64,000 nt of DNA from an uncultured Candidatus Saccharibacteria bacterium (GTDB lineage Bacteria; Patescibacteriota; Minisyncoccia; Phycocordibacterales; JACOZG01): NCBI GenBank assembly GCA_964360815.1, contig CAYHYA010000001.1:5574-69573 (forward strand), written 5' to 3'. The notes beneath the pieces are model-generated. The model saw nothing but the letters and a program-made list of their open reading frames with translations, did not search any database and had not been told where the DNA came from. Positions 16,724 through 58,539 of this stretch are shown here, piece by piece (position 1 is the first letter of the stretch; each line of letters opens with the position of its first letter). The position numbers and the translations under genes were made by a program.

Positions 16724-18169
16724 CTAATTCCCGATTTGGAAAATCCCCGACCCGCCGTAAATCGTTTCGCCGTTGACCACCGTGGAGAGACGGAACCAGT
16801 AAGAACCAGGTGTAATCGAGGCGAAAGCCACATTTTTACTACCAGTGTTCTGATTTAAGGAAGGAGTAAAATTACTAACTAATTGGTTATTGGGCGTCAT
16901 CAGTTCGACTCGAATTAGATTGCCATTGGGGACATTACTTGATGTCCAAGTCACCATTTTGGGCGAATCGGCCTGACGCCAAAGATTGTTCGCCAACGGG
17001 GCTGTCACATTGATCGAGGCGGTGGTTTGAGCTGGCGGCGGATTAGTACACTGGGTCGTATTGAGAGTGCAACTACCACTACAAATTAGAGAACCGAGAG
17101 AGTAACCATAAGAACCGCAAGTCAACGAACCGAAATTGTTGCCATCACATTGTTCTCCACCTTCAATTAAACCGTTACCACAAGTAGTCGCGGGCGGCGG
17201 CGGAACGGAAGTCGGAGCGGCGGTAAATTGGAAAATCCCCGACCCGCCGTAGATGTTTTGCCCGTTAACGACAGTGGAAAGACGGAACCAATAGGCGCCA
17301 GTCGGCAAACTGGAGTTGGTCAAACGACCAGACTCAACGCCGTCGTTTGCGGTAGTGAAATTAGAAAAACCAGTGGCCGGCTGATTGTTGGGGGTCCAGA
17401 GCTCAACCAAAATCGTGTTGCCGTCTGGAATGTTTGTGTCCGACCAATAAATCACCGGTCCGTTATTCACCGTCCATGAGCTGTTAGCCGGCGGCGAAGA
17501 CACATTGATCGTGACGGGACCAGGAGGAATCGGAGGTGAGGGTGGTGAAGTGAAATCGTTGCCGGTACTACCGCTTGCCGGCAGACAACTGTTCGAGAGT
17601 AAGTTGCCGTTCGGGCAAACAGAAGTCGAAGAGGGTGAACTGGCGGTAATGGTGAACCAGCGACTCCAACCGGTGATGGTCTCGCCGTTAACCGTAGTGG
17701 TGATTCGGACGCGATATTGGCCCGGCGCGGGCTGACTGTTCAAAACAAGGTTCTGCCGGCCGTCGTTTATAGTATTGAGAACACTTGTCGCACCGGTAAA
17801 TCTATCGGCCGAATTTAAAACTCGGACATCAACTAATGTTTCTGGCGGTAGGTCTTGACTCCACCACCGTACCGGCAATTCCGATCCGGCTTCATAACTA
17901 CCACCGCCCGGTACCGTGACGGTGATACTGGAGGTGGTGGTGGAATTATTAATGCTGGTTGAAATTCGTTGACCGATTGCTTGTCCCTGTAAAACTAGCA
18001 ACTGTTGTTGAAGTTGGGCGATCAAAGCATTGAGCTGGCTGATCAGTTGTTGCAAATAAGCCGCTGAGATGTTTTGCGTCTGCGCTTCGACTGGAGGTAA
18101 ATTGATAAAACCGATCGAGACGATAATTAATAAAAGACTAACAAAAACAAACCTTGATTTTCTATTCAT
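16724..18169 (-). CDS. Secreted repeat protein with three ~95-aa beta-domain repeats, a Myxococcus-type cysteine-rich repeat (CGNGxxExGEQCDxG) and the CPNGNLLSNSCLP motif
   Basis: Signal peptide MNRKSRFVFVSLLLIIVSIGFINLPPVEAQ. Internal repeats end ...YWFRLSTVVNG(Q/E)(N/T)IYGGSGIFQ. The DNA repeats at 16738..16803 and 17230..17296 were read directly. Confidence 0.55.
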   Translation of the reverse strand: MNRKSRFVFVSLLLIIVSIGFINLPPVEAQTQNISAAYLQQLISQLNALIAQLQQQLLVLQGQAIGQRISTSINNSTTTSSITVTVPGGGSYEAGSELPVRWWSQDLPPETLVDVRVLNSADRFTGATSVLNTINDGRQNLVLNSQPAPGQYRVRITTTVNGETITGWSRWFTITASSPSSTSVCPNGNLLSNSCLPASGSTGNDFTSPPSPPIPPGPVTINVSSPPANSSWTVNNGPVIYWSDTNIPDGNTILVELWTPNNQPATGFSNFTTANDGVESGRLTNSSLPTGAYWFRLSTVVNGQNIYGGSGIFQFTAAPTSVPPPPATTCGNGLIEGGEQCDGNNFGSLTCGSYGYSLGSLICSGSCTLNTTQCTNPPPAQTTASINVTAPLANNLWRQADSPKMVTWTSSNVPNGNLIRVELMTPNNQLVSNFTPSLNQNTGSKNVAFASITPGSYWFRLSTVVNGETIYGGSGIFQIGN

Positions 18170-18182
18170 GGTCCCAATTCTA

Positions 18183-18191
18183 CCCCCCCCC
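18183..18191. repeat. Homopolymeric C9 (G9 on the coding strand) tract 21 nt upstream of the start codon of secreted repeat protein 16724..18169
   Basis: Read directly: tacccccccccctgaatt. Confidence 0.8.
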
Positions 18192-18274: not shown

Positions 18275-18499
18275 ATGTCTACCTTATCCGTCCCCCTGTC
18301 GCCCACCCAAGAAGAATTTATCAAGAACATGGTCAAATCCGGTGCGGCGGCCAACAAGGCCGACGTGGTGCGCAAGGCCCTTAAACTGCTGGCCGAAGAA
18401 GAGGCCGTGATGACCGTGCTCAAGGCCGAGGAAGAATTTCGTCAGGGTAAATATTTCACCGGTGACCTAGAAAAAATCATTAGGAAATTTCCCGGCTAA
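18275..18499 (+). CDS. parD: ParD/RelB-type ribbon-helix-helix antitoxin
   Basis: SVPLSPTQEEFIKNMVKSGAAANKADVVRKALKLLAEEE matches the ParD consensus. Its stop overlaps the toxin start (ATGA). Confidence 0.65.
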   Translation: MSTLSVPLSPTQEEFIKNMVKSGAAANKADVVRKALKLLAEEEAVMTVLKAEEEFRQGKYFTGDLEKIIRKFPG

Positions 18500-18762
18500 T
18501 GAACTACTATTACGCGCCGTCATTCTTAAGGCAACTTAAAAAACTTGATCCAGCCATTCAAGCTGAAGCCATCGAAAAAATAAGTTTATTTAAAACCGGG
18601 GACTATGGTCGGCAACTAAAAGTTCACAAGTTAAGTGGTTGGCTAAATGATCGCTATAGTTTTTCTGTTGATTATCGCGTTCGAATCGTTTTCACCTACG
18701 TACACAAAAGAAAAGGTATCCTTTTTGTCGCAATCGGTGACCACGACGTGTACAAAAACTAG
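18499..18762 (+). CDS. parE: RelE/ParE-family toxin
   Basis: 87 aa. YRVRIVFTYVHKRKGILFVAIGDHDVYKN matches the C-terminal RelE/ParE signature. Confidence 0.65.
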   Translation: MNYYYAPSFLRQLKKLDPAIQAEAIEKISLFKTGDYGRQLKVHKLSGWLNDRYSFSVDYRVRIVFTYVHKRKGILFVAIGDHDVYKN

Positions 18763-25600: not shown

Positions 25601-26123
25601 CGCGGTCGGCCGCGTGTTTAATGATGCTCCAAACCGACTCGATGTATCTCGGTTCATAGGTGACGTAGGGATGATCTTGGTCAATCCAAAAACCGATTCG
25701 TTCGGTAAATTGCCGCCAGTCGGTTAAATATTTCCAAACGCTGTCGCGACAACGCTGGTTGAAGGCGACGAGACCATACTGTTCAATCTCTTTTTTTGAT
25801 TTCAGGCCAAGCTGTTTTTCGACTTCGAGTTCAACCGGCAAACCGTGCGTGTCCCAACCGGCGCGCCGCGCCACCCGATAACCCTGCATCGTGCGAAAGC
25901 GCGGAATAATATCTTTGAACGCCCGGGCTTCGATGTGGTGGATCCCGGGCCGACCATTGGCCGTCGGCGGCCCTTCATAGAAAACGAAGTCACCCCGCGG
26001 CGCGGATTTTGTCAGTGACTGTTCAAAGATTTTATTCTCCCGCCAAAACTGAAGAATGGCTTCTTCTTTTTTAGCTAAATCTGATGGTTCGTTATTTTTT
26101 GGTTCGATCATTAACGAACGCAT
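22623..26123 (-). CDS. ileS: Isoleucyl-tRNA synthetase carrying an inserted histidine-phosphatase (PGAM-like) domain
   Basis: HIGH region PTANGRPGIHHIEARAFKD and KMSKS. About 200 aa (residues ~497-700, nt ~24026..24635) contain RHGEGEH...LTETG...SSPLVRCRETA...VGHAITY, the histidine-phosphatase signature. Confidence 0.85.
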   Translation of the reverse strand: MRSLMIEPKNNEPSDLAKKEEAILQFWRENKIFEQSLTKSAPRGDFVFYEGPPTANGRPGIHHIEARAFKDIIPRFRTMQGYRVARRAGWDTHGLPVELEVEKQLGLKSKKEIEQYGLVAFNQRCRDSVWKYLTDWRQFTERIGFWIDQDHPYVTYEPRYIESVWSIIKHAADRGLLYQDYKVVPWCPRCGTALSSHELAQGYTEVTATAVYVKFELVNDPGTYFLAWTTTPWTLPGNVALAVNPNLEYALVQAANSKYILLASLVSKLFTTETVRVISTVPGRELVGQKYHPLFSSLADNLPPAEKNKLPNAFQIYPADFVSAEEGTGIVHTAVMYGVDDFALGTAVGLPKYHLVAEDGRFKPEVKLWAGQLVNDASPLIVTELKHQQKLFQAESIVHTYPFCWRCKTPLIYYARDSWYLKMSALKEKLLSENQKINWVPEHIKNGRFGEWLTEVKDWAISRERYWGTPLPVWQSTDGQERVVIGSLAELKAHTKRSGNRYLVMRHGEGEHQVKDLFTNNEHVLYHLTETGKKQVVASVDQLRKLGVTKIFSSPLVRCRETADLVVRELKFNPTEIIFDNRLREYDFGIYSDKPSSEFNNWSVGVPDYFTAIPSDGESLKEAKRRFGSFIYDLEKKHANEVILIVGHAITYESLMMVTEGADDERSGQISRDLWLNNAEVKEIPFVPLPHNADYELDLHRPFIDELELVSESGQVLKRVPEVLDVWFDSGAMPLASQISTPDKILYPADYIAEAIDQTRGWFYTLLAIGVILDRGTPYKNVVCLGHILDAAGKKMSKSVGNVVDPQLMIDKYGVDALRFWMYSINQPGESKNFDEQTVFEVVKKFINPITNVLSFYELYPVDLELETVKPPDRAATPVLDRWINLLLDRLTVEVTRGLERYEITAAARALREFVADLSQWYLRRSRDRFRVGSPAERQHASLALGQILKRLSRLLAPLTPFLAEQIYQKLRYPTDPTSVHLTDWPNLEKNKTTTVGETANEKLLNDMAQVRQLASLALEARVKAGIKIRQPLARLAVRGVTPDLTDELISLIKDEVNVKEVVWQNDLAATVELDTTLTPELKFEGDLRELVRQIQDQRKKSGLLAGELASLRVTTSTSGEKLIKAAESFLWQTATLSKIEIVRADKETAETTATPVFDLEIIKPT

Positions 26124-32581: not shown

Positions 32582-33601
32582 CTAGATCGAGCCAAAAGAC
32601 AAAGAACGCAAAAGATGCTGGCGTATTTTGTGTCCACGACAATGCTTTAGCACACCTAGATACGAAGTAAGATTGGCGGGAGTGATCTCGTCCCGATCCA
32701 ACCGCCGTAAAATGCGCCTTTTGGTCCGCGTTCGCAAAACTCGATAATGCGGCCGGGCGACGTACCCCAGATAATCAATTCCTTGGTGCAACTTACGAAT
32801 GATAATTTTGTCGGGATGCAAAGAAAGATTTAATTTGTTTTTCAAAAAATCAGAAATTGGCCAAATCAGGTTTTCTAAATAATCACGGCTTTGATGGACG
32901 ATGACAAAATCATCACAGTAACGCAGGTAATATCTGGCCTTAATTTCGTGTTTAATAAATTGATCAAGTTCGTTGAGATAAATGTTGGCAAAAAGCTGAC
33001 TGGTTACATTGCCCAGCGGTAAGCCACAACCAGGGATGATAGCGAAGCTCTCAACGACCGATCGAATTAGAGTGATAACACGGCTATCACCGATTACCTT
33101 TTCAATCAATGACAACAAGATAGCATGATCAATATTATCAAAAAACTTTTGAACATCACATTTTAAGGCGTAGCTTTGTGAATGATAATTACCACTGATC
33201 TTGCGAACAAAGGATTCTAGACGACTTACTCCACGATGCACTCCTTTGTTGAAGCGACAAGAATACGAGTCGTAAATAAAATGCCGATCAAAAAAATGGT
33301 ACAGTCCACGGAAAAGTGCTTGGTGTAGAACTCGGTCGAGCACCGGGGCCTTGTGGATATGACGTATCTTTGGGTCCCGAACGTAAAAAGATTGGTAGGA
33401 GGAGGGATGGTAAGCGTCGGAGACCAGATCAGCATGAAGTTTAAACAAATTATTTTCTAAATCGAACCCGAACTCCAAAACTTTGATTTTTTTGATTTTG
33501 CCGCGCTTGAATTCTCGCCAGGCATTGAGTAAATTAGACAGCGACACAACATGCTCCCACAACGACCAAGTAGACCCCCCCCCAACAGATTTCCTTGCCA
33601 A
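32582..33601 (-). CDS. Diversity-generating retroelement (DGR) reverse transcriptase
   Basis: RT motifs 1-7 with YCDD. Motif 4 reads LGNVTSQ, the DGR-specific [ILV]GxxxSQ that replaces QGxxxSP. 339 aa. The cognate TR and VR lie directly upstream. Confidence 0.8.
   Translation of the reverse strand: MARKSVGGGSTWSLWEHVVSLSNLLNAWREFKRGKIKKIKVLEFGFDLENNLFKLHADLVSDAYHPSSYQSFYVRDPKIRHIHKAPVLDRVLHQALFRGLYHFFDRHFIYDSYSCRFNKGVHRGVSRLESFVRKISGNYHSQSYALKCDVQKFFDNIDHAILLSLIEKVIGDSRVITLIRSVVESFAIIPGCGLPLGNVTSQLFANIYLNELDQFIKHEIKARYYLRYCDDFVIVHQSRDYLENLIWPISDFLKNKLNLSLHPDKIIIRKLHQGIDYLGYVARPHYRVLRTRTKRRILRRLDRDEITPANLTSYLGVLKHCRGHKIRQHLLRSLSFGSI
33575..33583. repeat. Homopolymeric C9 (G9 on the coding strand) inside codons 7-9 (GGG) of the DGR reverse transcriptase
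   Basis: Read directly: tagacccccccccaacag. The minus strand atggcaaggaaatctgttGGGGGGGGGtct encodes MARKSVGGGS. Confidence 0.8.
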
Positions 33602-33939
33602 TTGTTCATCAGTTAGGAGAATTATATAAGCATGTTTACCAAATTGGAAAGAAATTAAGTAAGGGCGACAAACTCGGCGTTTGGTCTAAAATAGAAATAG
33701 TGTGTTTGGAATGTCTTGAATTATCGATCACGGCCAGCTTGTTGCCATTAACATCAAAAACAGAGCCGCTTCGGCGATTAGGGTTAAAAATAGAAGTGAT
33801 GAAAAGGTTGATTAGGTTGTGTTGCGAAATTAAGATCATTGAAGATCGGGTTTATTTATGTTTAACTCAACCGTTACAGGAAATTTCCAAGATGACAGCT
33901 GGCTGGTACAAATACGCCAACCAAAAAGAGCGCCCTTAA
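33595..33939 (+). CDS. Possible Avd-like four-helix-bundle accessory protein (23S-rRNA-IVS family), encoded divergently from the RT
   Basis: ELYKHVYQIGKKLSKGDKLGVWSKIEIVCLECLELS resembles the IVS/Avd helix-1/2 pattern. The orientation is opposite to the TR and RT, which lowers confidence. Confidence 0.3.
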   Translation: MPIVHQLGELYKHVYQIGKKLSKGDKLGVWSKIEIVCLECLELSITASLLPLTSKTEPLRRLGLKIEVMKRLIRLCCEIKIIEDRVYLCLTQPLQEISKMTAGWYKYANQKERP

Positions 33940-33957
33940 GACGCCCCGTTTTGGTAA

Positions 33958-34076
33958 CACTACCTCACGAGTCCGACCATTCGGGTTGGCGTCGTCGCGA
34001 TTCCACCAATTGATCTTGAACTGTCTATCGTTCCAGTTGGCGTAGACGGCCTTGCCATCAGAGTTACGCGAACTCG
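33958..34076 (-). repeat. DGR template repeat (TR), 119 bp, Asn-codon (AAY) rich
   Basis: Aligns without gaps to VR 34352..34470. 13 of 15 differences fall at TR adenines (coding sense on the minus strand). The track's ORF 33874..34176 most likely just spans this non-coding TR. Confidence 0.8.
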
Positions 34077-34339
34077 CGTAGTATCCTTTCCCATCCATTC
34101 CACCGGCAATCTTAAAGTAAAATTGCCTGCGTTGATCCCGTGGTGTGGGGCAAAGTTTGCGGCCTGGTCTTATCAATCCTTACCGCCAGGAAAAGACACG
34201 CAGTGCTATTTAATCTTCTTGGCAAATCGTTATTCCGTGAACGGAACCGATTTATCAGCCGGGTTAAATTTTACAAATAAAAAAATCACCGCGCAACTCA
34301 ACAAAGAGACACGCGGTGATCTAGGATTAAAGGAAGAAG

Positions 34340-35143
34340 TTACGAGTTTAGCACTACCTCACGAGTCCGACCATCCGGGTGTGCGCCGTCGCGAAGCCAC
34401 CAACCGACCTTGAACTGTCTACCGTCCCAGTCGGCGCCGACGGCCCTGCCATCAGAGTAACGCGAACTCGTAATGGTCACGTTAATTAGGTCGAGATGAC
34501 CGCCCTCGATTTTTTGGTGGTGCAATGCTTCCAACAACATCCGCTCGCCAATGGTTGAGTATATAAGGCCACGTTGATCGAGTTGGTCCGGCGAAAGATT
34601 GGAGTATTCTTCACTTGGTTCCACCGCCCCTTCGGTCCAGAGAGCATAAACACTCTCTGGCCGAGGTTGGTTTATGGTAACGGCCTGATCGAGATTTTTC
34701 GTGTAACGAAAACACGGAAAAGCGACTTCGTTAACGCGGTAAATTTGATCGAGCGACAAGTTGGGGTCAACGACGAGTAGCGTTGGTTGCCGAAACCTAC
34801 CTGTCGGCAGGGTCGGCACGGTCAGTTTGTTCAAATCTATTCGTCGTTGGTGCTGATCAAGATAATATTGTTCCCACCACTCGAGATCGTTACCAATATT
34901 GACAGCATCGTCAGTCGCACCGATTAAGAAATTACCGACCCTTCTCTGCCATTCTCTTTTTTCCTTGACCAGTTTTTCGGCCTGATCAAAATCTATCGTT
35001 ATCGGCATCGCGTGAACCAAAGCACTGCAAATTTCCCTCGTTTGACCGAACGTCATCGGTTTCTTAACCACCGCTGGAACAGTACCGCTTTTACTCATGG
35101 TCAGTTTCCTTTCACTTAATTCAAAGACCCCGGCTAAAGGCAC
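34340..35143 (-). CDS. DGR target protein (variable protein); the C-terminal ~40 aa are encoded by the VR
   Basis: C-terminus ...SSRYSDGRAVGADWDGRQFKVGWWLRDGAHPDGRTREVVLNS compares with the TR-encoded SSRNSDGKAVYANWNDRQFKINWWNRDDANPNGRTREVV. No signal peptide was detected. Confidence 0.7.
   Translation of the reverse strand: MPLAGVFELSERKLTMSKSGTVPAVVKKPMTFGQTREICSALVHAMPITIDFDQAEKLVKEKREWQRRVGNFLIGATDDAVNIGNDLEWWEQYYLDQHQRRIDLNKLTVPTLPTGRFRQPTLLVVDPNLSLDQIYRVNEVAFPCFRYTKNLDQAVTINQPRPESVYALWTEGAVEPSEEYSNLSPDQLDQRGLIYSTIGERMLLEALHHQKIEGGHLDLINVTITSSRYSDGRAVGADWDGRQFKVGWWLRDGAHPDGRTREVVLNS
34352..34470 (-). repeat. DGR variable repeat (VR) at the 3' end of the target gene
   Basis: See the TR entry. 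The final ~21 nt (ggtcggactcgtgaggtagtg) are identical to the TR, including its adenines, which is consistent with an IMH-like unmutated end. Confidence 0.8.
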
Positions 35144-39661: not shown

Positions 39662-40309
39662 TTAATTTAGTGTTTTGATGATTTTGTTCCAGAAATCGCG
39701 TCCACGTCTGAACCAATCTCGTCGGCGGAGAACAGCAACACTCGCTCCCAACAGAGAGAGGGTTCCTGGTTCCGGAATCGGCGTGCCGCGGAGAACAAAA
39801 GAATCAAATCCCATTCGATCGCCAGCGGAGGAAAAATCTCCGATTAGACGAAAAGCGAAATTAGGATTATCGCTGGCTTCCGGCGGCAGGGCCAGAGATT
39901 CTAAAATCCAGTCGCTTTCGTTCATGTTCGTGTAGAAAGCAAGTGGTTTCCAATCTTTCGAATCGGGGGTCCACTCAACTCGCATCACGTCATCAATCTC
40001 GAGCGCCCCCCTAACCTGTTCGGCAAACTCCAAAATCAAACCATGAAAGCCGACCGTGGAAATTTCAAGAAGCAGCGTGCCGTCCGGCCCACCACTTATT
40101 CCACTAAAGTCGGCGCCCCAGTCTCCCTCGAAGGCCGCCGCATCAGACGAGATAAGTTGCCATCGCCCATTAGCACCGGTCCATCGATCAAATGCTTGAT
40201 TGGGGCCGCTGATTTCGAATCCATCCTCGAATAGAATATCGGCCGAAACCCCCCCCACCATCAACAGAGGTAAGAGTAAAACCAGTCGCGACTTTCTTCT
40301 TCCACCCAT
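39662..40309 (-). CDS. Secreted protein with C-terminal PEP-CTERM sorting signal
   Basis: Signal peptide MGGRRKSRLVLLLPLLMVGGVSA. C-terminus IPEPGTLSLLGASVAVLRRRDWFRRGR is PEP followed by a TM helix and an Arg-rich tail. Confidence 0.55.
   Translation of the reverse strand: MGGRRKSRLVLLLPLLMVGGVSADILFEDGFEISGPNQAFDRWTGANGRWQLISSDAAAFEGDWGADFSGISGGPDGTLLLEISTVGFHGLILEFAEQVRGALEIDDVMRVEWTPDSKDWKPLAFYTNMNESDWILESLALPPEASDNPNFAFRLIGDFSSAGDRMGFDSFVLRGTPIPEPGTLSLLGASVAVLRRRDWFRRGRDFWNKIIKTLN
40249..40256. repeat. Homopolymeric C8 (G8 on the coding strand) in the signal-peptide codons of the PEP-CTERM protein
   Basis: Read directly: gaaaccccccccacca. The minus strand gtgGGGGGGGtt encodes VGGV. Confidence 0.8.
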
Positions 40310-49511: not shown

Positions 49512-50054
49512 CTACCGGCTAACGCTGATCGTCTCGCCGTCTTCGGCATCACAGGCCCCAACGGTGATCGAGCCAGTAGAACTACGCGAGATATAGTAAC
49601 CAGTCATGTCATCGAGCGGGTCGGTGTCCCAAGTGGCGGCACCGGCCGGACTAACCGGAATTCGCGGCAAATAACCGTCGGTCACAAGACCAGCGGTGCC
49701 ACTTTCCAAAACCACGCAATTATTGCCATCGTTCACGATCGAACAAGAAGTATTGCAACCAGTGCTTGGCACCGTTGTTTCGTTGTTGCTGATCATAAAG
49801 TTCTCTCCGGCGGCCAAATCGGCAACACTGAAACCGGTCGGCCCATCCAAGTATCGTCCGCCGTTGTCGACTTGGTCAACTTTGATCGCGCTTAAAATCG
49901 CCGTCACGTCCGTCCAGCGTGCGGCATTGCGCGCGTCGGCAAAACGTTGTAGCGGATCAAGCGACACAAACACCACGCCGGCCAAAATGGCGATGATCGC
50001 AATGACGATCAAAAGTTCGATGAGGGTAAAACCTTTTTTCTTAAACATAAACAA
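49512..50054 (-). CDS. Type IV pilin / pseudopilin (prepilin N-terminal methylation domain)
   Basis: KKGFTLIELLIVIAIIAILAGV is a class III signal peptide with the G/F cleavage site and Glu+5. Confidence 0.75.
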   Translation of the reverse strand: MFMFKKKGFTLIELLIVIAIIAILAGVVFVSLDPLQRFADARNAARWTDVTAILSAIKVDQVDNGGRYLDGPTGFSVADLAAGENFMISNNETTVPSTGCNTSCSIVNDGNNCVVLESGTAGLVTDGYLPRIPVSPAGAATWDTDPLDDMTGYYISRSSTGSITVGACDAEDGETISVSR

Positions 50055-50056
50055 AA

Positions 50057-51577
50057 TTATGGGATTATTAATTTTTTAATCGCGTATTGTTTACTGATCC
50101 AACCAATCTCTATTTTATACCATTCACCATCCGTCTCCAAGAGTGGATAATTCTCCTCCGGATAAACCTTGCCCACAACCCCGAAGGTTGGCCCCGGACC
50201 AGCGCGAACGTTTAACCACCCGGTTGGCGTGACCGTGATGACGACCATCTCAACTTCCTCGACTGGCGGCGAAGTGGTGGCCAGCTCCGAAGAGATCGAG
50301 ATGGTGACTGGCGAGATCGCCGAGGGAACAGTTTCGACCGGACTCTCAACTTTCGCCGGCTTGCTTGGCTCAAGGATTTGTCGGTTTTGTCGGAAAAGAT
50401 ACCAACCGCTGCTAACCACTAAAACCAAAAAAACTCCCGTCATGGCCACCCTAAGTCCGTAGCGCGAACCACTTCGGTCGTGCTGACCGTCCAACCGGAA
50501 ATTTAGCTCTTCGCCACTACGCCAGCGCGATGAACTAAATTCTTTAAGCGCTAATCCAATCGCCTCAAGATAAACGAGCGGTTGATTGAGAAAAAACGAG
50601 TGCGCCAAATTAACTGGTAACTCCAAATTAGATTTAAGGTAGTCACTCAAACCCCGCAAATGGCTACCGCCGCCGGCCAGAAAAAGTGAATCAACCTTAC
50701 GCCCCGACCATTGTTCGTAGTAGTCGAGAGTCACCTTCAGTTCGTCGCGCAAGACCACCAAATTCTTGAGCAAAACGGTGAAAACTTGATGGTCGGGATT
50801 AGTTAAACCGATCTCCTTCTTCATTTCTTCGGCTTCGCTTGAGGTGATTTTTAAGTTTTTAACCAGGTCGGTGGTCAACATTTCCGCGCCGTAATTCAAA
50901 ATTCGCGAATAACGCAGGCCGCCGCGCTCAAAAATCGCCACATGGGTGGAGACCGCTCCGAAATCAACCACGGCAAGTGGGCCGGCGGGTGAACCATTAA
51001 TCGAGGCCTCGGCTGGCGCGACGCTCCGAAACAGCGCGCTCGTTTCAAGATCAAATTCAACCGCCCAACCAAACGACTGGAAAAATTTTTGCCACCGTTC
51101 AAGAAACGAGCGGCTAACCGCCGCTAAAAGAAAATTGTCGCCACTCAAACGCTTGTAAGTAACCACAAGATCGTCGGCCTCGATCGGGACATTCTCCTTC
51201 GCTTCGCGCAAAACGCGCGCCCGCCACTCTTCGGCGGTGTGGGGTTGTTGTTCAGCTGGGCAAACAAAGGCGTGGAGAAAAACTTGCGTCTCGGGCAAGC
51301 CGAAATAAAGGCGGCGCGGGGTGATTGGTTCAGGTTTGGCTAATTCCAAAACACTTTTGACCGCGGCGGCCAAGCGAACTTCGTCTTTAATCACTCCCCG
51401 CTCAACCACACCGGCGGGCAAAACTTGTCGACCGAGGGCCGTCACCTCAAGCTGACGGCCTCGTCGAACAATTTCAGCCACCTCAATACTTCGATCGGCC
51501 ACATCGAGACCAACCGCCGCTTTAGAAAAAAAGTTTAAGCGCCACATGTTAAAAATTATTCCGCTGGCTCGGACCAA
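50057..51577 (-). CDS. pilM: PilM-like actin-fold pilus assembly ATPase fused to a PilN-like TM segment and a C-terminal SH3b-like domain
   Basis: N-terminal ~330 aa resemble PilM (GLDVADRSIEVAEI...). A TM helix at ~aa 370 (VFLVLVVSSGWYLF). C-terminus GWLNVRAGPGPTFGVVGKVYPEENYPLLETDGEWYKI is SH3b-like. Confidence 0.6.
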   Translation of the reverse strand: MVRASGIIFNMWRLNFFSKAAVGLDVADRSIEVAEIVRRGRQLEVTALGRQVLPAGVVERGVIKDEVRLAAAVKSVLELAKPEPITPRRLYFGLPETQVFLHAFVCPAEQQPHTAEEWRARVLREAKENVPIEADDLVVTYKRLSGDNFLLAAVSRSFLERWQKFFQSFGWAVEFDLETSALFRSVAPAEASINGSPAGPLAVVDFGAVSTHVAIFERGGLRYSRILNYGAEMLTTDLVKNLKITSSEAEEMKKEIGLTNPDHQVFTVLLKNLVVLRDELKVTLDYYEQWSGRKVDSLFLAGGGSHLRGLSDYLKSNLELPVNLAHSFFLNQPLVYLEAIGLALKEFSSSRWRSGEELNFRLDGQHDRSGSRYGLRVAMTGVFLVLVVSSGWYLFRQNRQILEPSKPAKVESPVETVPSAISPVTISISSELATTSPPVEEVEMVVITVTPTGWLNVRAGPGPTFGVVGKVYPEENYPLLETDGEWYKIEIGWISKQYAIKKLIIP

Positions 51578-51963
51578 CGTCGCACCTCAACCGTTCGTTC
51601 GCCCAAACCAACCGTCACGACAACCGTTTTGGTGAAGGCGGCGAGTTGACCGGTTACCGTCACCACTCTTTGTTGTCCACCCGAGTTAACAACTTCTATT
51701 ATACACGAACCAGTAAGTAGCGGCAGGCCGGGCGCGGGCTGGCCCAGATAGTTTTGGTCTAGCCGCAAACGTTCGAGGGCCTCCTCAACACAGCCGTCCG
51801 CGAGCGCCCCGGCGCGCGCCGCGCCGATCAAATAACCAAAATCAAGCGCGCCCAAACCGAGCAACGAGGCGTTGAGCGATAAGATAAGAGCCGTGGCACC
51901 AATCACCACAATGGCCACCAGCGCCAAGAAGCCGCGTTGATTATTTTTTGCTTGTTTAATCAT
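51556..51963 (-). CDS. Minor pseudopilin-like protein (GspK/PilX-like N-terminal anchor)
   Basis: RGFLALVAIVVIGATALILSL is an N-terminal hydrophobic anchor. It lies in the pilus operon. Confidence 0.4.
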   Translation of the reverse strand: MIKQAKNNQRGFLALVAIVVIGATALILSLNASLLGLGALDFGYLIGAARAGALADGCVEEALERLRLDQNYLGQPAPGLPLLTGSCIIEVVNSGGQQRVVTVTGQLAAFTKTVVVTVGLGERTVEVRRWSEPAE

Positions 51964-52457
51964 TGACGCAAACTAATCACCGTTCTAACTTCGATTTCGT
52001 AAGCAAAATCGGCTGACGCGGGCTCACGATAACGAAGCGTAAAACTAGCGCGTAGATTATCTCGAGCGTCGTTGGGCTCGGCTAAATTAGTAAAAAGCAG
52101 GTTGGTCAGTTCAACGGCCCCGCCGGAAACTTGAACGGCGGCTTGACCAGCCGTGGTTAACCATAAGACTCCGTCGAGTAATTCAAATTTCCGACCTGGT
52201 TCCGGGCTGGGACGAGTCAATTCCAGCACAGTGGCCGCGCTACCCGCCGGCGGATTAACGATGGCCGTGGCGGCGCGCACTTCTCTGGCAATGATCGAGG
52301 TAACGATTTGCGCGTTCGCCTCGACTTCAACTGCGACATAATTCTTGTCCCGCACCGCACCAAGAGAAAGTATCCAAATCACCAAACTCGTCAACACCAA
52401 ACTGACGAGTGTGAGGTAAATTACAAATTCGACCAAAGTAAAACCTTTTTTCATCAT
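51960..52457 (-). CDS. Prepilin-type pseudopilin
   Basis: MMKKGFTLVEFVIYLTLVSLVL is a class III signal. Confidence 0.6.
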   Translation of the reverse strand: MMKKGFTLVEFVIYLTLVSLVLTSLVIWILSLGAVRDKNYVAVEVEANAQIVTSIIAREVRAATAIVNPPAGSAATVLELTRPSPEPGRKFELLDGVLWLTTAGQAAVQVSGGAVELTNLLFTNLAEPNDARDNLRASFTLRYREPASADFAYEIEVRTVISLRQ

Positions 52458-54295
52458 TTGTAATTTATTCTGACCGCTCCAACCACGGGCGTGGTGTTGC
52501 CGTCACCGGTTAAAAAGACGCGATATTGTAACCACTGGTTGCCGTTATAACTCTGATCAACCAGCGCGCCGCGCGCGACCGTAAAATCTGGCGACCAAAC
52601 CGCCGCGGCGAGACCGGCTTGGCTTGAAGCAACACGAATTTGAAAACGCACGGTGCAGGTCGGACTACAAGCGGGCAAAACTTCATCCCAACCAATCAGT
52701 TGAATTGGTGACGGGTTGCCGAGATCAAAGGCCGAAGATATCAGTTCGCCGGCCGTCTCATAACCACCGCCGGTCAAGCGTAAAATTACGCCGTTGTTAC
52801 CGACCGCCCAACCAGCGCCAACCGAAGGCAAGACCAAACCATTAAGCGTTCGAATTGTGCCGGTGAGCAAATCGTTCCAATTCGTGCCGTCAAATTGACG
52901 ACTCGTGCCATTTGAACCAACCACCAAACCACTAAGTCCGACCGAACCCTCAACTTCATTCCAGGTTTGACCGCCAGTCGAGTAAACGGTATTCCAGTTG
53001 CCGCCGTTCCAACGTCTGATTTGGCCATTCGTGCCGGCGACCCAACCATCGTTCGCGGTGAGCAGGAAAACGCTGTTCCAGGTGACACTGCCGAAGTTGA
53101 TAAAAGAATTCCAACTTGCGCCGTTCCAACGAACGATCGCGCCACTGCCACCAACCGCCCAACAATCATTAGGACTCACACACCAGACGCTGTTTAGGTT
53201 GACGTTCGGCGCGGTCGGAGCTGGCCCGATTCGCGACCAAGCACTACCGTTCCAGTGAAGCGTGAGTGGGCCGCCCGAGCGAATCCCGACCACCCAACAA
53301 TCGTTATTGGTTAGGCAAAAAATACTGTTCAAGCCAACATCGGGAATGGCCGCGACCGGATTGAACCGGGTCCAACCAGTGCCGCCAGTATTCCGAATAA
53401 TCAATTCACCGCCACTCGCGTTGCCAACGGCCAAGCAGTCGCCGGCGCTCACGCAAAAAACACTGTTCAGGTTAACATTCGGAATGCTCGCCGACGGGCT
53501 GACTCGTGACCAAGCGCTACCGTTCCAGTGTAAAATCATTTCGCCCTGGTTCGCCACCGGCCCACCGGTAATGGCATTACCGACCGCGAAGCAATCGTTA
53601 GCACTTCGGCAATGAACATCGTTCAGGGTTTGCGTGGTTGGAGAAATTTCGTTAACCCAAACCAACGGCCGAGAGCGCAACTTCAGTTCCCCGCCGGTCT
53701 GGTCTAACCGACCGTCATCACTTAAATAGCGCGTTGGATCAGACCAACTGACCTGTCCGGCGCCGCCCGACCAGTCGGTTTGCACCCAGTCATTCGAATC
53801 CCAGTTAGTGAAGAGGGTGGCCCGCTCGACTTCGTTGTTCGCCCCCGAAGCCGCCGACCAACTAACCATCACTCGAGCGGTCTGACTCTCAAGGTCAATG
53901 GTGCCGGCGGGACAAACAACGATGGCGCGAGTAGCGTCACGACACACTGGAGCGAAAGAAGTGGTGCGAGTAAATTGACCAACTGTTTCCGTGGTCCCCT
54001 CGCCCAAGAAACGCCATTGCCCGCTCGTCGAGGTGGCGACACTTTGCGTAAAAACTAATTCGTTCCACGCACCATCGCGAATCGAGCGCACTGCCTCGAG
54101 ACCCTCATCGGCTAAAGCCGCGGCGGCAAGATAGTCGCCGCCTTGAATTAAAGAAGTGAAACCGCCAAGCGTTAACGACACCATCACCGCGGCGAGCAAA
54201 GCGAAAATCGCCAAGGCGATAATCACCTCCATTAAGCTTTGGCCGCGGCGGCCAAAATTCGGAAAATTAATTTTCTTCAACCAAGCCAAGTTCAT
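52454..54295 (-). CDS. Large minor pilin with prepilin N-terminus and ~6 beta-propeller-like repeats; putative pilus-tip adhesin
   Basis: GQSLMEVIIALAIFALLAAV prepilin signal. Repeats of WNGSAW/WNGASW...N.LNSV.C....DC.AVG are YCF48/BNR-like propeller blades. Confidence 0.55.
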   Translation of the reverse strand: MNLAWLKKINFPNFGRRGQSLMEVIIALAIFALLAAVMVSLTLGGFTSLIQGGDYLAAAALADEGLEAVRSIRDGAWNELVFTQSVATSTSGQWRFLGEGTTETVGQFTRTTSFAPVCRDATRAIVVCPAGTIDLESQTARVMVSWSAASGANNEVERATLFTNWDSNDWVQTDWSGGAGQVSWSDPTRYLSDDGRLDQTGGELKLRSRPLVWVNEISPTTQTLNDVHCRSANDCFAVGNAITGGPVANQGEMILHWNGSAWSRVSPSASIPNVNLNSVFCVSAGDCLAVGNASGGELIIRNTGGTGWTRFNPVAAIPDVGLNSIFCLTNNDCWVVGIRSGGPLTLHWNGSAWSRIGPAPTAPNVNLNSVWCVSPNDCWAVGGSGAIVRWNGASWNSFINFGSVTWNSVFLLTANDGWVAGTNGQIRRWNGGNWNTVYSTGGQTWNEVEGSVGLSGLVVGSNGTSRQFDGTNWNDLLTGTIRTLNGLVLPSVGAGWAVGNNGVILRLTGGGYETAGELISSAFDLGNPSPIQLIGWDEVLPACSPTCTVRFQIRVASSQAGLAAAVWSPDFTVARGALVDQSYNGNQWLQYRVFLTGDGNTTPVVGAVRINYK

Positions 54296-54719
54296 TGATC
54301 GTGATCATCCTCTGACCGCTCGCTTCGTGATCCAAGGTGACGCTACCGGCGGCGAGCGGCGCGCCGAGAGAATTAAAATTGAGGTCGTTAGCTAGCAAAG
54401 TTGTCGAGACGCGAAGCGCTGGCGGCAAATCAACGATGCGATCGTATTCAACAATTCGACCGGTGCAGTCAACCCCTTGATAAAGAATGTAGCGATCGGC
54501 TGGCGGACTGGCTTCAAAACAAACGCCGTGATGAGCGGCGTTCAAGCCAACCACACTCCGTTCGCGCGCCAAACGCATGGTTTGGACGAGCTGGCTCGTT
54601 TCTTCGTTCAACTGTGTTGTCACCGCTAAGTTGCCGTAAAGCGGTAACACCGTCACTCCGACCAACAAAAAAATTGCCAACACTAAAAGCAGTTCGACCA
54701 AAGTAAACCCCGCGCTCAT
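54267..54719 (-). CDS. Prepilin-type pseudopilin (GspH/FimT-like)
   Basis: MSAGFTLVELLLVLAIFLLVG is a class III signal. Confidence 0.6.
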   Translation of the reverse strand: MSAGFTLVELLLVLAIFLLVGVTVLPLYGNLAVTTQLNEETSQLVQTMRLARERSVVGLNAAHHGVCFEASPPADRYILYQGVDCTGRIVEYDRIVDLPPALRVSTTLLANDLNFNSLGAPLAAGSVTLDHEASGQRMITINELGLVEEN

Positions 54720-54756: not shown

Positions 54757-55326
54757 TTACGGGAGAAACTGAAGCAGGAACCATTGTCTCGACGTGTCAG
54801 AGGAAAAAACCGAGATAACCTGATAGGTTAATGTATCATCAAAAAACGTGTCCACCATGTTGGTTGGGATATTATCTATGTTTTCTACTGTACCCATCAG
54901 AGCAACCTTGTAATCTCGACCCTGCGAATCTGTTTTGTACCAGTAACCCAAATCCGGATTACTGGATGGACCAGAGGGGTCAGCGGGTCTGGGGTCTAGA
55001 TATTGAGATATCGCCGCTAGTTTATTGGGGTCATGGTAATCGTTGTTCGTGGTGGGGCAATCCCAACAATCAAGTCCGGCTGACGTTATTTCGGTTCCGC
55101 CAATAAAAATATCATCTGGATAACGACCATAATCTGTCTTATACAACTCCAACGCGTTTCTTAATTGAATTAAGTCCTGCACACGTTTTGAGTCGCGGGC
55201 TTTGGCCCGGGCTTGGGCGAGGGAAGCAAACACAATGCTCGACAAAAGGGAGATAATCGCGATGACGACTAAAATTTCGATCAGCGTGAACCCCCCCCTC
55301 TTTTCTGTTCGTTCTGTGTTCTTCAT
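54757..55326 (-). CDS. pilA: Type IV major pilin (PilA/GspG-like)
   Basis: RGGFTLIEILVVIAIISLLSSIVFASLAQARAKARDSKRVQDL matches the GspG/PilA consensus. The leader contains a G8 tract. Confidence 0.7.
   Translation of the reverse strand: MKNTERTEKRGGFTLIEILVVIAIISLLSSIVFASLAQARAKARDSKRVQDLIQLRNALELYKTDYGRYPDDIFIGGTEITSAGLDCWDCPTTNNDYHDPNKLAAISQYLDPRPADPSGPSSNPDLGYWYKTDSQGRDYKVALMGTVENIDNIPTNMVDTFFDDTLTYQVISVFSSDTSRQWFLLQFLP
55291..55298. repeat. Homopolymeric C8 (G8 on the coding strand) in the prepilin leader of the major pilin gene, immediately before the G/F cleavage site
   Basis: Read directly: gtgaacccccccctctt. The minus strand agGGGGGGGGttc encodes RGGF. Confidence 0.8.
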
Positions 55327-55364: not shown

Positions 55365-56441
55365 CTATCGCCTAATATTGCCCGTGATTTGGTAGATCGG
55401 CGTGATGATCGAAAGGGCCAGACCGGCGACGACAAAGCCGATCAAGAGCAATAGGATTGGCTCAAGAATGGTGGACAAAGATTTGGTGGTGGCGTCAACT
55501 TCGTCCTCATAGAAATCGGCGAGATAGAAAAAGGTGTCCTCAAAGCGTCCCGAGACTTCGCCAACTCGAACCATTCGGGCAAACAGGCGCGGGAAAAGTT
55601 TGGGAAACCGTTCCAACCCGTCCGAGAGCTTCAGGCCCCGACCGACCTCGCTCGTCACCTCGCGCAAGGCGCGACGGTAATAAAAATTGTTTAAAGTTTT
55701 TTCGGTAATCGTTAGGGCCTCGTCAATATTGATGCCACTTTTCAATAGCAAGCCAAGCGAACTGGCCGTGCGCGCTAAATTAAGGTTACTGGCAAGACGC
55801 CCCGAGCCAGGCGAACGCAAAATTAACCAATGGGTCAGCGGGGCCATAAAACCCTGATGGAGTAGCCAGCGCAGAAATGCGACAACCACAATGAACCCGA
55901 CAAGGAAGATGAGTCCGCGGCGATCAACGAAGTCGGCCAACCAAATCAGCCAACGCGTGGTGAACGGCAGATCAATTTTCAAACCCCGAAAGAGCGGGGT
56001 GATCTTCGGCAGGATAAAGAAGGCGATCGTTAAACCAAGACCGATCGTTGAAACTAGCACGATGGCCGGATAAATCATCGCGCCCCTAACCTTCGATAAC
56101 AGATTGCGCTCTTTTTCCAATTCGCGGGCGAGGTTGGCCAAATTGGTCGCCAGATTACCGGAACGCTCCCCCGCATAAACCGCGCTGACGAAAATGCCGG
56201 AAAAAATTCTGGGAAAGACGGTGAGGGCCTCGGCGAACGATGATCCCGACTCGACGGAACGCTCGACGCGAGTGAGCGTCCGCCGCAGGGCGCCAGTGGC
56301 AGAATCAATAGACACGGCGAGCGCTTCGGTTAGAGTTAAGCCGGCCCCGAGCATCACTGATAAGTGTTTGGCGAAAAGGGCTTTCTGGGTTAAGTTGACG
56401 CCGCCCCAACTGATTTCTTTTTTTAACCAACCGTTAGACAT
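55365..56441 (-). CDS. pilC: Type IV pilus / T2SS inner-membrane platform protein (GspF/PilC family)
   Basis: Two repeated GspF domains, 3 TM segments, 358 aa. Confidence 0.75.
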   Translation of the reverse strand: MSNGWLKKEISWGGVNLTQKALFAKHLSVMLGAGLTLTEALAVSIDSATGALRRTLTRVERSVESGSSFAEALTVFPRIFSGIFVSAVYAGERSGNLATNLANLARELEKERNLLSKVRGAMIYPAIVLVSTIGLGLTIAFFILPKITPLFRGLKIDLPFTTRWLIWLADFVDRRGLIFLVGFIVVVAFLRWLLHQGFMAPLTHWLILRSPGSGRLASNLNLARTASSLGLLLKSGINIDEALTITEKTLNNFYYRRALREVTSEVGRGLKLSDGLERFPKLFPRLFARMVRVGEVSGRFEDTFFYLADFYEDEVDATTKSLSTILEPILLLLIGFVVAGLALSIITPIYQITGNIRR

Positions 56442-56447
56442 ACCAGT

Positions 56448-58139
56448 TCAAATTTTAGTCACTCGCAAAACTTCTTCGAGCGTGGTGAGGCCGGATAAAA
56501 CTTTATCCACGCCGTCCTCGAGCATGGTCGTGAGCCCGGCGCGACGGGCCGCTTGAACAATTTCGTTCGACGCGGCCCGCGCTACCACGAGTGCCTTGAT
56601 CGCATCATCCATCTCGAGCACTTCAAAAATGCCGACTCGCCCCTGATAACCAGTCTGACTGCAGACCGTGCAACCCTGTCCATGATAAAAAGTTAATTTG
56701 GTTAAACTGCTATAACCGCGGTCTTTAAAAATTTGTTTCAGTTCCGGCTCATCGACAATCAATTTTTTAGTTTCCGCCGAAGGTGCGGCCGAGACCCGAC
56801 AACGATCGCAAACTTTCCGCACCAGCCGCTGGGCGATAATTACGTTGATTGTCGAAGCGACGAGAAATGGTTCGATCTCGAGGTCAAGGAGTCGCGGTAG
56901 CGTGGTGGCGGCATCGTTCGCATGGAGCGTGGAGAGAACGAGATGGCCCGTCATGGCCGAATTAACGGCAATACCGGCGGTTTCCTCATCCCGAATTTCT
57001 CCAACCACGATAATGTCCGGATCCTGACGCACGATTGCCCGCAAACCCAAAGCGAAAGTTAGGTTAGTTTTCGGGTTAACCTGAATTTGGCTCACCCCTT
57101 CGATGTCATACTCAACCGGATCTTCGATCGTGGCCACATGAACGTCTCGCGTATTTAAAATTTTTACGACGGCGTAAACCGTCGTGGTTTTACCAGAGCC
57201 GGTCGGACCAGTGACCAGAATCATCCCGTGCGGATTATCTATCGCCCGTTTAACCTTAACTAAATCGGTCTCGCCCAAACCCAAATCCGTTAAGCTGAAC
57301 TTCCGGCTCTGTTCAGAAAGTAGGCGGAGCACGACATTTTCGCCATCAGTCACCGGCACGATGGACACGCGCACATCAATCGGTTCATTTCGAACCATAA
57401 ACTGGAGCTTGCCGTCTTGCGCCGAACGGTGTTCGTCGGTGCGCATCCGGGCGAGAATTTTGATGCGCGTTAAAATGACGTCAGACAAACCCCGTGGCAA
57501 TTCCAAAACATCGTGCATGACTCCATCAATCCGAAAGCGCACCAGCACTTTCTGTCGCGTTGGTTCGATGTGGATGTCCGAGCACTTATTCTGGTGACCA
57601 TATTGGAAAAGTAGGTCAACCAAGCGAATCGTCTGCTCGTCGCGCCCTTCTTTACTCAAGCGTTCGTCGAGTACTCGTTCTAGGGTTGACTCAAACTCGG
57701 ATTTCAAACTACCTTTGTAATTATTTAGGGCTTCGTCAAGATCGCGCCGCGTAATCAATCCCGCGATAATTCGTTCGCCCAAACGCTTTTCGAGCAAGTG
57801 CACCGTCGCCAGATCAGACGGATCAACCATGCCGACCTTGATTCCCTCACGCGAGCGCGATACGGCAATCACCCCGCGATGTCGCGCCACCATTTCCGGC
57901 ACTCGACTAAAAATCGCCGACTCAATCTTTTCGCGCCGGAGATCAAACCAGTGAAGATCCTGCGCCTCGGCCACCAAGCGGGCCAGATCGCTATCGCGGA
58001 TCAAGTCTTTATCAACCAAGACATCCCACAACTCGCGGTGCTCGGCCTGACTGGCAGTGACGGCCAACTCGAAATCGGCCAGTTTAAGATGACCTGGGGT
58101 GACGAGAATATTTTTTAATTGAGCGGTGGTTAGAGGCAC
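56448..58139 (-). CDS. pilB: Type IV pilus assembly ATPase (GspE/PilB family); the start was revised to the GTG at 58139, 1 nt after the upstream response-regulator stop
   Basis: Walker A LVTGPTGSGKTTT, Asp and His boxes, and a C-terminal tetracysteine (CDRC...CTVC). The track's ATG start would overlap the upstream gene by 113 nt, so a coupled TAAcGTG start is preferred. Confidence 0.8.
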   Translation of the reverse strand: MPLTTAQLKNILVTPGHLKLADFELAVTASQAEHRELWDVLVDKDLIRDSDLARLVAEAQDLHWFDLRREKIESAIFSRVPEMVARHRGVIAVSRSREGIKVGMVDPSDLATVHLLEKRLGERIIAGLITRRDLDEALNNYKGSLKSEFESTLERVLDERLSKEGRDEQTIRLVDLLFQYGHQNKCSDIHIEPTRQKVLVRFRIDGVMHDVLELPRGLSDVILTRIKILARMRTDEHRSAQDGKLQFMVRNEPIDVRVSIVPVTDGENVVLRLLSEQSRKFSLTDLGLGETDLVKVKRAIDNPHGMILVTGPTGSGKTTTVYAVVKILNTRDVHVATIEDPVEYDIEGVSQIQVNPKTNLTFALGLRAIVRQDPDIIVVGEIRDEETAGIAVNSAMTGHLVLSTLHANDAATTLPRLLDLEIEPFLVASTINVIIAQRLVRKVCDRCRVSAAPSAETKKLIVDEPELKQIFKDRGYSSLTKLTFYHGQGCTVCSQTGYQGRVGIFEVLEMDDAIKALVVARAASNEIVQAARRAGLTTMLEDGVDKVLSGLTTLEEVLRVTKI

Positions 58140-58140
58140 G

Positions 58141-58539
58141 TTAAGAGTGACGAGCGCGAGCGAGTTCGGCTTTAATTTTTTCCACCACGGTTTTAATCTC
58201 CACGTCCGACTTAACCAAATAATCGCTCGCCCCGAGCGCTTTGGCTTTGGCAATATCGGTGTCCTGTCCCAGGTTCGACAACACGATCACGGGCGGGGGT
58301 TTCGCCACTCGTCCCAACTTCATTTCCGCTAAAACCTCAAAACCGTTTTTCCGGGGCATGATCAGGTCGAGTAACACCAAATCGGGCGCCTCGCTTTTAA
58401 TCTTGTCGAGCGCCTCTTCGCCGTTGATCGCTTTGATCACGGTAAAACCCGCGCGCGTCAGCTTGTCGCCCAGGGCGACGGAAAGAAACTTGTCATCCTC
58501 GGCGAGCAGGATTTTGCCCAATGTTTTTTCTTCAGACAC
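58141..58539 (-). CDS. Single-domain response regulator (CheY-like receiver)
   Basis: ILLAEDD...DLVLLDLIMP...VIVLSNL...K carries the receiver Asp and Lys signature. There is no output domain. Confidence 0.75.
   Translation of the reverse strand: MSEEKTLGKILLAEDDKFLSVALGDKLTRAGFTVIKAINGEEALDKIKSEAPDLVLLDLIMPRKNGFEVLAEMKLGRVAKPPPVIVLSNLGQDTDIAKAKALGASDYLVKSDVEIKTVVEKIKAELARARHS

Follow-up and report, generated by a model that had tools for sequence, protein, structure and literature searches.

Does a run of eight guanines within the leader codons of a type IV pilin gene serve as an ON/OFF switch for that pilin, or does it have another origin? The run lies in a 64,000-nt stretch of DNA from an uncultured Candidatus Saccharibacteria bacterium (hereafter, the window), whose gene content (many aaRS genes, RecA, FtsK, a type IV pilus cluster and a DGR) fits a CPR genome. 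Positions 55291-55298 read CCCCCCCC on the + strand, that is C8, which becomes G8 on the coding (-) strand of the following gene:

55291..55298, - strand: G8 tract, codons 10-12 of 189, AGG GGG GGG = R-G-G, abutting the cleavage site G|F
54757..55326, - strand: type IV pilin gene, 189 aa, MKNTERTEKRGG|FTLIEILVVIAIISLLSS...; Pfam N_methyl 1.1e-7, T2SSG 2.4e-3 (weak)

The 5' end of this gene reads ATG AAG AAC ACA GAA CGA ACA GAA AAG AGG GGG GGG TTC ACG CTG ATC GAA and its translation starts MKNTERTEKRGG|FTLIEIL. As the initial annotation had proposed, the run supplies the Gly-Gly codons right before the prepilin cleavage site (RGG|FTLIEIL), which can be read directly in the - strand sequence. 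We defined a class III signal peptide as a short basic leader with a final Gly, followed by F or M at +1, by Glu at +5 and by some 20 residues of hydrophobic helix; all of these are found in MKNTERTEKRGG|FTLIEILVVIAIISLLSSIVFASL, and the N_methyl match (1.1e-7) is above the Pfam cut-off. The same annotation held that gain or loss of 1 nt shifts the frame of the pilin after the leader, and translation bears this out: G7 gives a product of 14 aa and G9 a product of 62 aa. It had also raised the question of whether G8 is the only in-frame length, which it is not, lengths of 5 and 11 being in frame as well. With eight nucleotides the run reaches the length at which G/C homopolymers are considered hypermutable (about 7-8 or more), as do the other tracts of the window (G8, G9 and G9). 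Both the pilin tract (codons 10-12) and a second tract in a promoter-like spacer (tract 1, below) are placed in the 5' coding region or promoter, where a change of 1 nt can toggle expression.

The genes around the pilin were annotated with Pfam profiles and are as follows:

56448..58253, - strand: PilB-like assembly ATPase (T2SSE and MshEN), 5.4e-123
55365..56441, - strand: PilC-like platform protein (T2SSF), 8.3e-51
54267..54719, - strand: minor pilin, GspH-like, leader MSAG|FTLVELL; Gly codon GGG, no tract
52454..54295, - strand: 613-aa prepilin-like protein, leader ...FGRRG|QSLMEVI
51960..52457, - strand: 165-aa prepilin-like protein, MMKKG|FTLVEF
50057..51577, - strand: PilM-like protein with C-terminal SH3, profile match PilM_2
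49512..50054, - strand: second pilin, leader MFKKKG|FTLIELLIVIAIIAIL, N_methyl 8.3e-10; no poly-G

The poly-G pilin gene is thus embedded in a pilus-assembly locus, directly downstream of pilB and pilC and upstream of four more prepilin-like genes, of pilM and of the second pilin, with T2SSE, T2SSF, PilM_2 and four further N_methyl proteins falling within 49.5-58.3 kb. A sigma-70-like promoter was looked for just upstream of the gene and none was found; the pilin is probably co-transcribed with pilB and pilC. No match to Peptidase_A24 (prepilin peptidase, PilD) was obtained among the 50 window proteins scanned; the peptidase gene may lie elsewhere in the genome, and its absence from the window is no argument against the pilin assignment. 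Only one of the six prepilin-like genes carries a G-run, the other five using a single GGT, GGC or GGG for Gly -1. The initial annotation had called the poly-G pilin the major one, a label that is unproven because a second pilin, itself a candidate for the major subunit, is encoded at 49512-50054.

G/C runs of at least 8 nt number exactly four in the window, as had been counted before: C9 at 18183-18191, C9 at 33575-33583, C8 at 40249-40256 and C8 at 55291-55298. All four are C on the + strand and consequently G on the sense strand of - strand genes. The three tracts outside the pilus cluster and the genes next to them are:

18183..18191, - strand: tract 1, G9; occupies the 18-nt spacer in a promoter-like site, TTGCCC-18-TAGAAT, and lies 14 nt upstream of ATG 18169
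16724..18169, - strand: 481-aa secreted or anchored repeat protein with an N-terminal signal/anchor sequence and no Pfam match, downstream of tract 1
33575..33583, - strand: tract 2, G9, between divergent DGR genes, 12 nt upstream of the bAvd-like TTG start (+ strand)
32582..33601, - strand: DGR reverse transcriptase (RT), maximal ORF, RVT_1 7e-21
33595-33939, + strand: bAvd-like gene, divergent from RT
40249..40256, - strand: tract 3, G8, GTG GGG GGG GTT = V-G-G-V in a signal peptide
39662..40309, - strand: 215-aa secreted protein carrying tract 3; weak PEP-CTERM-like C-terminus (9e-4, below the Pfam cut-off)

The initial annotation had placed all four tracts in surface-related or variation-related genes. 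Only two of them are clearly inside genes; of the others, tract 1 occupies a promoter-like spacer and tract 2 is found between the avd and RT genes of the DGR. What the four tracts share is their distance of about -22 to +61 nt from a start codon: the zone from -30 to +65 nt around starts makes up 8.8% of the window and holds all four of them (P ~6e-5).

The earlier estimate that far fewer than one such run would be expected by chance does not hold against an iid model of base composition, which expects 1.40 G/C runs of at least 8 nt in 64 kb (P(>=4)=0.05), but it does hold relative to the run-length spectrum of the window itself, which is bimodal (199 runs of 4 nt, 38 of 5, 2 of 6, 0 of 7, 2 of 8 and 2 of 9). 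When codons were shuffled so that all protein sequences and the codon usage of the window were preserved, coding sequences had an expected 0.66 runs of at least 8 nt where 3 are present (P=0.026); for coding runs P(>=2) came to 0.14, and runs of 6-7 nt are depleted (2 observed vs 10.7 expected). Markov nulls of order 3-5 were dropped, since such models learn G-runs from the tracts themselves. The genome otherwise avoids G/C runs, and the four runs of 8-9 nt persist, all adjoining starts. These numbers bear on the simplest alternative to a switch, namely that the pilin tract is a by-product of an R-G-G leader combined with codon drift, a neutral or mildly harmful homopolymer that has no role. 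Both the expectation from base composition and the shuffle probability for two or more coding runs leave room for such an accident, while the depletion of intermediate runs and the position of four of four tracts next to start codons argue against it.

Orthologous pilins bear on the same alternative. We found 595 homologs of the pilin, the named ones being prepilins of Patescibacteria, Paceibacterota and Vogelbacteria MAGs. The closest homologs are 46-56% identical to the query and many of their leaders end in RGG or GG; such endings are common in the family, so that the peptide forces five of the eight G's, as a chance origin would have it. The remaining wobble positions are free to vary: GGG represents 14.8% of the Gly codons and AGG 5.3% of the Arg codons in the window, and the probability that R-G-G is written AGG GGG GGG is ~0.001 under this codon usage. 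Patescibacteria orthologs that are 46-51% identical keep AGG GGG GGG. More specifically, two homologs, P0010 and P0032, were picked from their protein sequence alone, blind to DNA; P0010 (contig L211) reads ATG ATG AGG GGG GGG TTC and P0032 (contig L212, a Vogelbacteria MAG) reads GCT AGG GGG GGG TTC. The same three codons are found in P0016 (L115) and in a pilin from Hainich well H43 (L110/L129). In a five-way codon alignment, these three codons are invariant, and most conserved residues flanking them show synonymous variation. As an unbiased baseline, contigs were scanned with a pilin alignment, most of the matches listed being remote pilins, from groups such as Planctomycetota and Verrucomicrobiota. 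Among the 93 prepilin sites listed from other phyla there is no G-run longer than 5, and the three RGG leaders among them are written CGT GGT GGC, CGA GGC GGT and AGA GGA GGG. The peptide can therefore be encoded without poly-G and yet the tract is invariant in orthologs, which indicates maintenance at the DNA or RNA level. Conservation beyond codon expectation suggests that the tract is maintained by selection, and with all RGG orthologs examined, among them the two picked blind, repeating the three wobble G's at a probability of ~0.001 each, we disfavor a chance origin as improbable.

Conservation alone also accommodates a function in the transcript. All in-frame orthologs of the pilin family have exactly G8 and never G11, which also fits a constraint on RNA or peptide. 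An alternative explanation would then be that AGGGGGGGG, about 28 nt after the start codon, acts in the mRNA, resembling a Shine-Dalgarno sequence or forming a structure, and tunes leader translation or pausing, or that it is a transcriptional-slippage site that yields mixed products, frameshift alleles being a side effect in either case. Tracts 1 and 2, which sit 12-14 nt upstream of candidate starts, where a G-run could act as a ribosome-binding element, are in line with this explanation; however, no start codon lies downstream of the pilin tract at Shine-Dalgarno spacing. Tract lengths in relatives, described below, bear further on this alternative.

The initial annotation had suggested counting tract lengths in related genomes. 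This comparison yielded a G8/G9 difference in an ortholog from Hainich and out-of-frame alleles elsewhere, but none in the population of the window itself. The Hainich ortholog has G8 in contigs L110 and L129 (well H43) versus G9 in contig L209 (well H52); the first 300 nt of L209 are otherwise identical to those of L110/L129, the downstream pilin protein is 100% identical and the mature ORF is intact. The gene call from L209 (P0047) is truncated, its N-terminal part missing, and is 100% identical to the L110 pilin. The G9 of L209 would thus be an OFF allele of the predicted kind in an ortholog of the window pilin, read on a contig of only 2.5x coverage where a read error is possible. Poly-G tracts cause truncated or missed pilin calls in MAGs, of which P0047 is an example, and out-of-frame CPR pilins should therefore not be counted as gene loss. 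Another N-terminally truncated homolog, P0058, was considered as an OFF allele and rejected: the tract is missing, and the reading frame is broken by a GAA->TAA nonsense mutation of Glu5. At this locus (L210:215-300, leader MKSEKLKARTYKLKPTKG|FTLI*), it is the conserved Glu5 that is hit, and the remaining ORF is intact.

To look beyond orthologs, metagenome contigs were scanned for at least 7 G followed by TTY ACN YTN ATH GAR (FTLIE), a search that selects on poly-G and gives no rates. The scan returned at least 120 stretches, with lengths among the matches listed of G7 (76), G8 (24), G9 (7), G10 (8), G11 (8) and G12 (1). Each site was called in or out of frame by the presence of an in-frame start codon before the tract, and sites were de-duplicated before counting. 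Among the matches listed, out-of-frame alleles make up 4% at G7 (3/68), 10% at G8 (2/20) and 48% at G9 or longer (10/21; Fisher p=1.4e-5), so longer tracts are more often out of frame, which is expected of slippage. Both the +1 and the -1 states are present among these matches, with a clear upstream ATG in the shifted frame, preceded in several of the out-of-frame alleles by a ribosome-binding-like sequence. The out-of-frame alleles listed retain intact mature ORFs of 96-232 codons, two of which run off the contig end. They include RGG-type leaders at G9 (L094, L092) and at G7 (L200, L158), and also members of the pilin family of the window (L151, L094 and L119). L139 (G11) and L163 (G10) have identical downstream sequence and form an allelic pair.

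Part of this picture would agree with an RNA element, in that only 2/20 of the listed G8 alleles are out of frame, in addition to the constant G8 of the in-frame orthologs. In the other prepilin families listed, however, the tract varies between 7 and 12, as do the number of Gly and the distance from the start, unlike a fixed RNA element, and out-of-frame alleles become much more frequent in longer tracts, as expected of slippage. We regard an RNA role as rather unlikely.

Additional poly-G tracts were noticed on the contigs recovered. In JGI994J12354, contigs L102 (91-114 and 1508-1531), L098, L152 and L202 carry large prepilin-like genes of 350-425 aa with the leader MKQIKKMK+G(n) at G9, G10 and G11; two paralogs on one contig are out of frame, and the related L098 (G10) is in frame. 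The Vogelbacteria contig L212 (JAZDGA010000019.1) has a sense-strand G7 at 18097-18103, about 170 nt into an N6_N4 DNA methyltransferase gene that adjoins a HinfI-like endonuclease, possibly a phase-variable R-M system, and a sense-strand G8 at 19781-19788 in the 5' part of a 66-aa ORF. On a Paceibacterota contig (L062, DATDVS010000005.1), G8 at 12673-12680 encodes L-G-G-G in a pseudopilin-like gene (FTLVETLVAVSIFSV...VVLGGGIS), about 25 codons past the cleavage site, a second poly-G position in pilin-like genes of this group. A contig of an Akkermansia muciniphila MAG (L044) carries G10 at 6061-6070 and G16 at 7031-7046, about 200-1200 nt upstream of a prepilin-like match at 7233-7457; an ATG follows the G16 about 60 nt later.

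Within the population of the window, exact copies of the pilin were found on Hainich groundwater contigs from the 0.1 µm fraction of well H51. Independent assemblies from three replicates of this well are 99.9-100% identical to the window, and the comparison took in tracts 1 and 3 and the pilin tract. The pilin tract is G8 in L001 and L002; L003 (replicate R1, coverage 3) reads GGGGGGGGG TCACG at L003:1922-1930, a G9 that arises by a T->G substitution and not by insertion, so that TTC becomes GTC (Phe+1 to Val, F+1V) and length and frame are unchanged. Tract 1 is G9 in 3/3 replicate assemblies and tract 3 is G8 in two other assemblies. The search for tract-length variants in this population thus came out negative: across the window and three other assemblies, no length heterogeneity was found at the pilin tract, a weak test based on consensus sequences at 2-4x coverage from one well and one sampling. 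Logan contigs L005 and L006 begin at least 37 nt downstream of the pilin tract and are uninformative on its heterogeneity. Either the F+1V change in L003 is real and alters the methylated N-terminal residue, or it reflects a read error after the homopolymer. Positions 1-143 of L001 are unmatched in the window and GC-rich, which suggests a chimeric contig end.

These assemblies are also informative on whether the tract is a sequencing or assembly artefact, that is, a poly-G miscall or an error in homopolymer length. A base change right after a homopolymer is a typical Illumina error context; the T->G directly after the run in L003 and the low coverage of the related contigs (2-4x) are what this explanation can draw on. 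Against it, the tract is in frame and encodes the required Gly at -1, it is reproduced in independent assemblies from three replicates and in Logan run-level contigs, and it is also present in other species from other studies. We consider an artefact hardly credible.

The explanation we prefer is that the pilin G8 is a slipped-strand-mispairing ON/OFF switch maintained by selection, to which we assign, from sequence comparisons, a probability of roughly 0.6; the tract is probably a contingency locus, a new one of the classical kind. Replication slippage would add or remove one G in the G8 run. With G8 the leader MKNTERTEKRGG would be in frame with the mature pilin (ON), with G7 or G9 translation would end at 14 or 62 residues (OFF), and a later slip would restore the frame. 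The population would always contain a minority of cells lacking this pilin, or relying on the second pilin 5 kb away. Such heterogeneity may help an episymbiont, as pili would mediate contact with the host and be exposed to phages and hosts. We infer that the tract switches in this organism at a useful rate, reversibly and to this purpose. The comparison with contingency loci made in the initial annotation accordingly gains from the conserved tract, the G8/G9 polymorphism in the ortholog and the out-of-frame alleles elsewhere, but not from the population of the window, which shows no variation. G8 is at the low end of mutable lengths, with two of the 20 listed G8 alleles out of frame. No mutS or mutL is found among the window genes; the presence of mismatch repair is reported to vary among CPR, and one study found that Saccharibacteria lack MutS and MutL whereas Gracilibacteria and Absconditabacteria have them (PMC8406219).

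Such a mechanism has classical precedents. In Neisseria gonorrhoeae and N. meningitidis, pilC carries poly-G in its leader-coding region (Jonsson et al., 1991, as cited in PMC4471445). The pilin gene resembles pilC, also a type IV pilus gene, in that poly-G occurs at the 5' end where the leader is encoded and a change of one G shifts the frame, which in Neisseria has been experimentally proven to switch piliation on and off. It differs from pilC, which encodes the PilC adhesin/assembly factor with an ordinary signal peptide, in that the gene encodes a pilin subunit and the tract forms the residues before the prepilin-peptidase cleavage; organism and phylum differ as well. For Campylobacter there are measurements of length heterogeneity and of switching rates, and it lacks mismatch repair. 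The poly-G contingency loci of Campylobacter jejuni (PMC8355987) are similar in that several G/C homopolymers per genome lie in or between surface-structure genes, where they act as stochastic ON/OFF switches, whereas our window holds only four tracts of 8-9 nt. Homopolymers at the 5' end of genes, for example the poly(A) of Listeria monocytogenes inlA, allow efficient reversible inactivation and have been put forward as a mechanism general among prokaryotes (Orsi et al., 2010, PMC2831843); the pilin tract is likewise close to the start codon but, unlike the inlA poly(A), consists of poly-G in a genome that otherwise avoids G/C runs. Tract 1 is comparable to homopolymers in promoter spacers, such as the Bordetella fim poly-C and Neisseria promoter tracts (PMC1891110, PMC6389960): it fills the spacer between -35-like and -10-like elements, and its length would set both the size of the spacer and the strength of the promoter. 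Unlike those promoters, the one at tract 1 is a 9/12 consensus match predicted from sequence, and the comparison covers tract 1 and not the pilin tract.

Novelty lies in the host group, in the exact position (the codons that precede the prepilin cleavage site of a pilin subunit) and in the conservation across the pilin family. The mechanism being classical, the advance concerns where and how widely it occurs and not its kind. The initial annotation had stated that such switches have not been highlighted for CPR-like genomes, and our literature search on CPR/Patescibacteria agrees, as no report of repeat-mediated phase variation was found; the nearest CPR case, in a Gracilibacterium, is a hypervariable repeat of 9-mers that stays in frame (PMC6851277). 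Type IV pili are described as the best-supported host-contact organelles of CPR/Patescibacteria episymbionts (in PMC9894109 and PMC12206443). Pilus regulation in these organisms is largely unknown because few regulators are carried, and an ON/OFF switch in the leader, if true, would create heterogeneity of attachment at the population level without any regulatory protein.

A broader reading, plausible though short of probable, would be that poly-G in the prepilin leader is a family-wide, selected phase-variation device in Patescibacteria pilins and other uncultivated lineages, accompanied here by tracts in a promoter, in a secreted-protein gene and in the control region of a DGR to form a small 'phasome'. 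If so, an ultrasmall episymbiont would hedge its bets on host attachment, phage exposure and the timing of DGR target diversification, and CPR would have their first described system of contingency loci. Tracts 1-3 are probably of the same class as the pilin switch, lying in a promoter spacer, a DGR avd/RT intergenic region and a signal peptide, respectively. The -10 hexamer of the promoter-like site at tract 1 ends 7 nt before the ATG, in a 9/12 match to the consensus, and this match raises the possibility that the mRNA of the 481-aa gene may be leaderless. If translation of the RT begins at GTG 33547 (GGGAG 6 nt upstream), tract 2 would belong to its 5' UTR; with a start at TTG 33601 it would lie in codons 7-9. 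The GTG start appears most plausible and tract 2 is probably non-coding. In the gene of the 215-aa protein, tract 3 at G7 gives a product of 70 aa and at G9 one of 40 aa.

The DGR is complete (32582-35143), with a target gene at 34340-35143 (-) that carries the VR, a TR, the RT and the bAvd-like gene. The TR (33955-34076) and VR (34349-34470) differ at 17 positions, 14 of which are TR adenines. The bAvd-like gene is on the + strand, opposite to the RT, an unusual orientation for an accessory gene between TR and RT. Immediately upstream of tract 1, at 18275-18762 (+), a ParD-like antitoxin (74 aa) and an 87-aa partner form a toxin-antitoxin-like pair. Look-ups by exact protein sequence returned no record for PilC, for the 481-aa protein, for the RT read from TTG or for the 432-aa neighbour. 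Finally, a class I aminoacyl-tRNA synthetase of 1166 aa (22623-26123, - strand; tRNA-synt_1 and Anticodon_1) has a histidine-phosphatase domain (His_Phos_1, residues 503-670, 5e-26) inserted in the middle of its catalytic domain.
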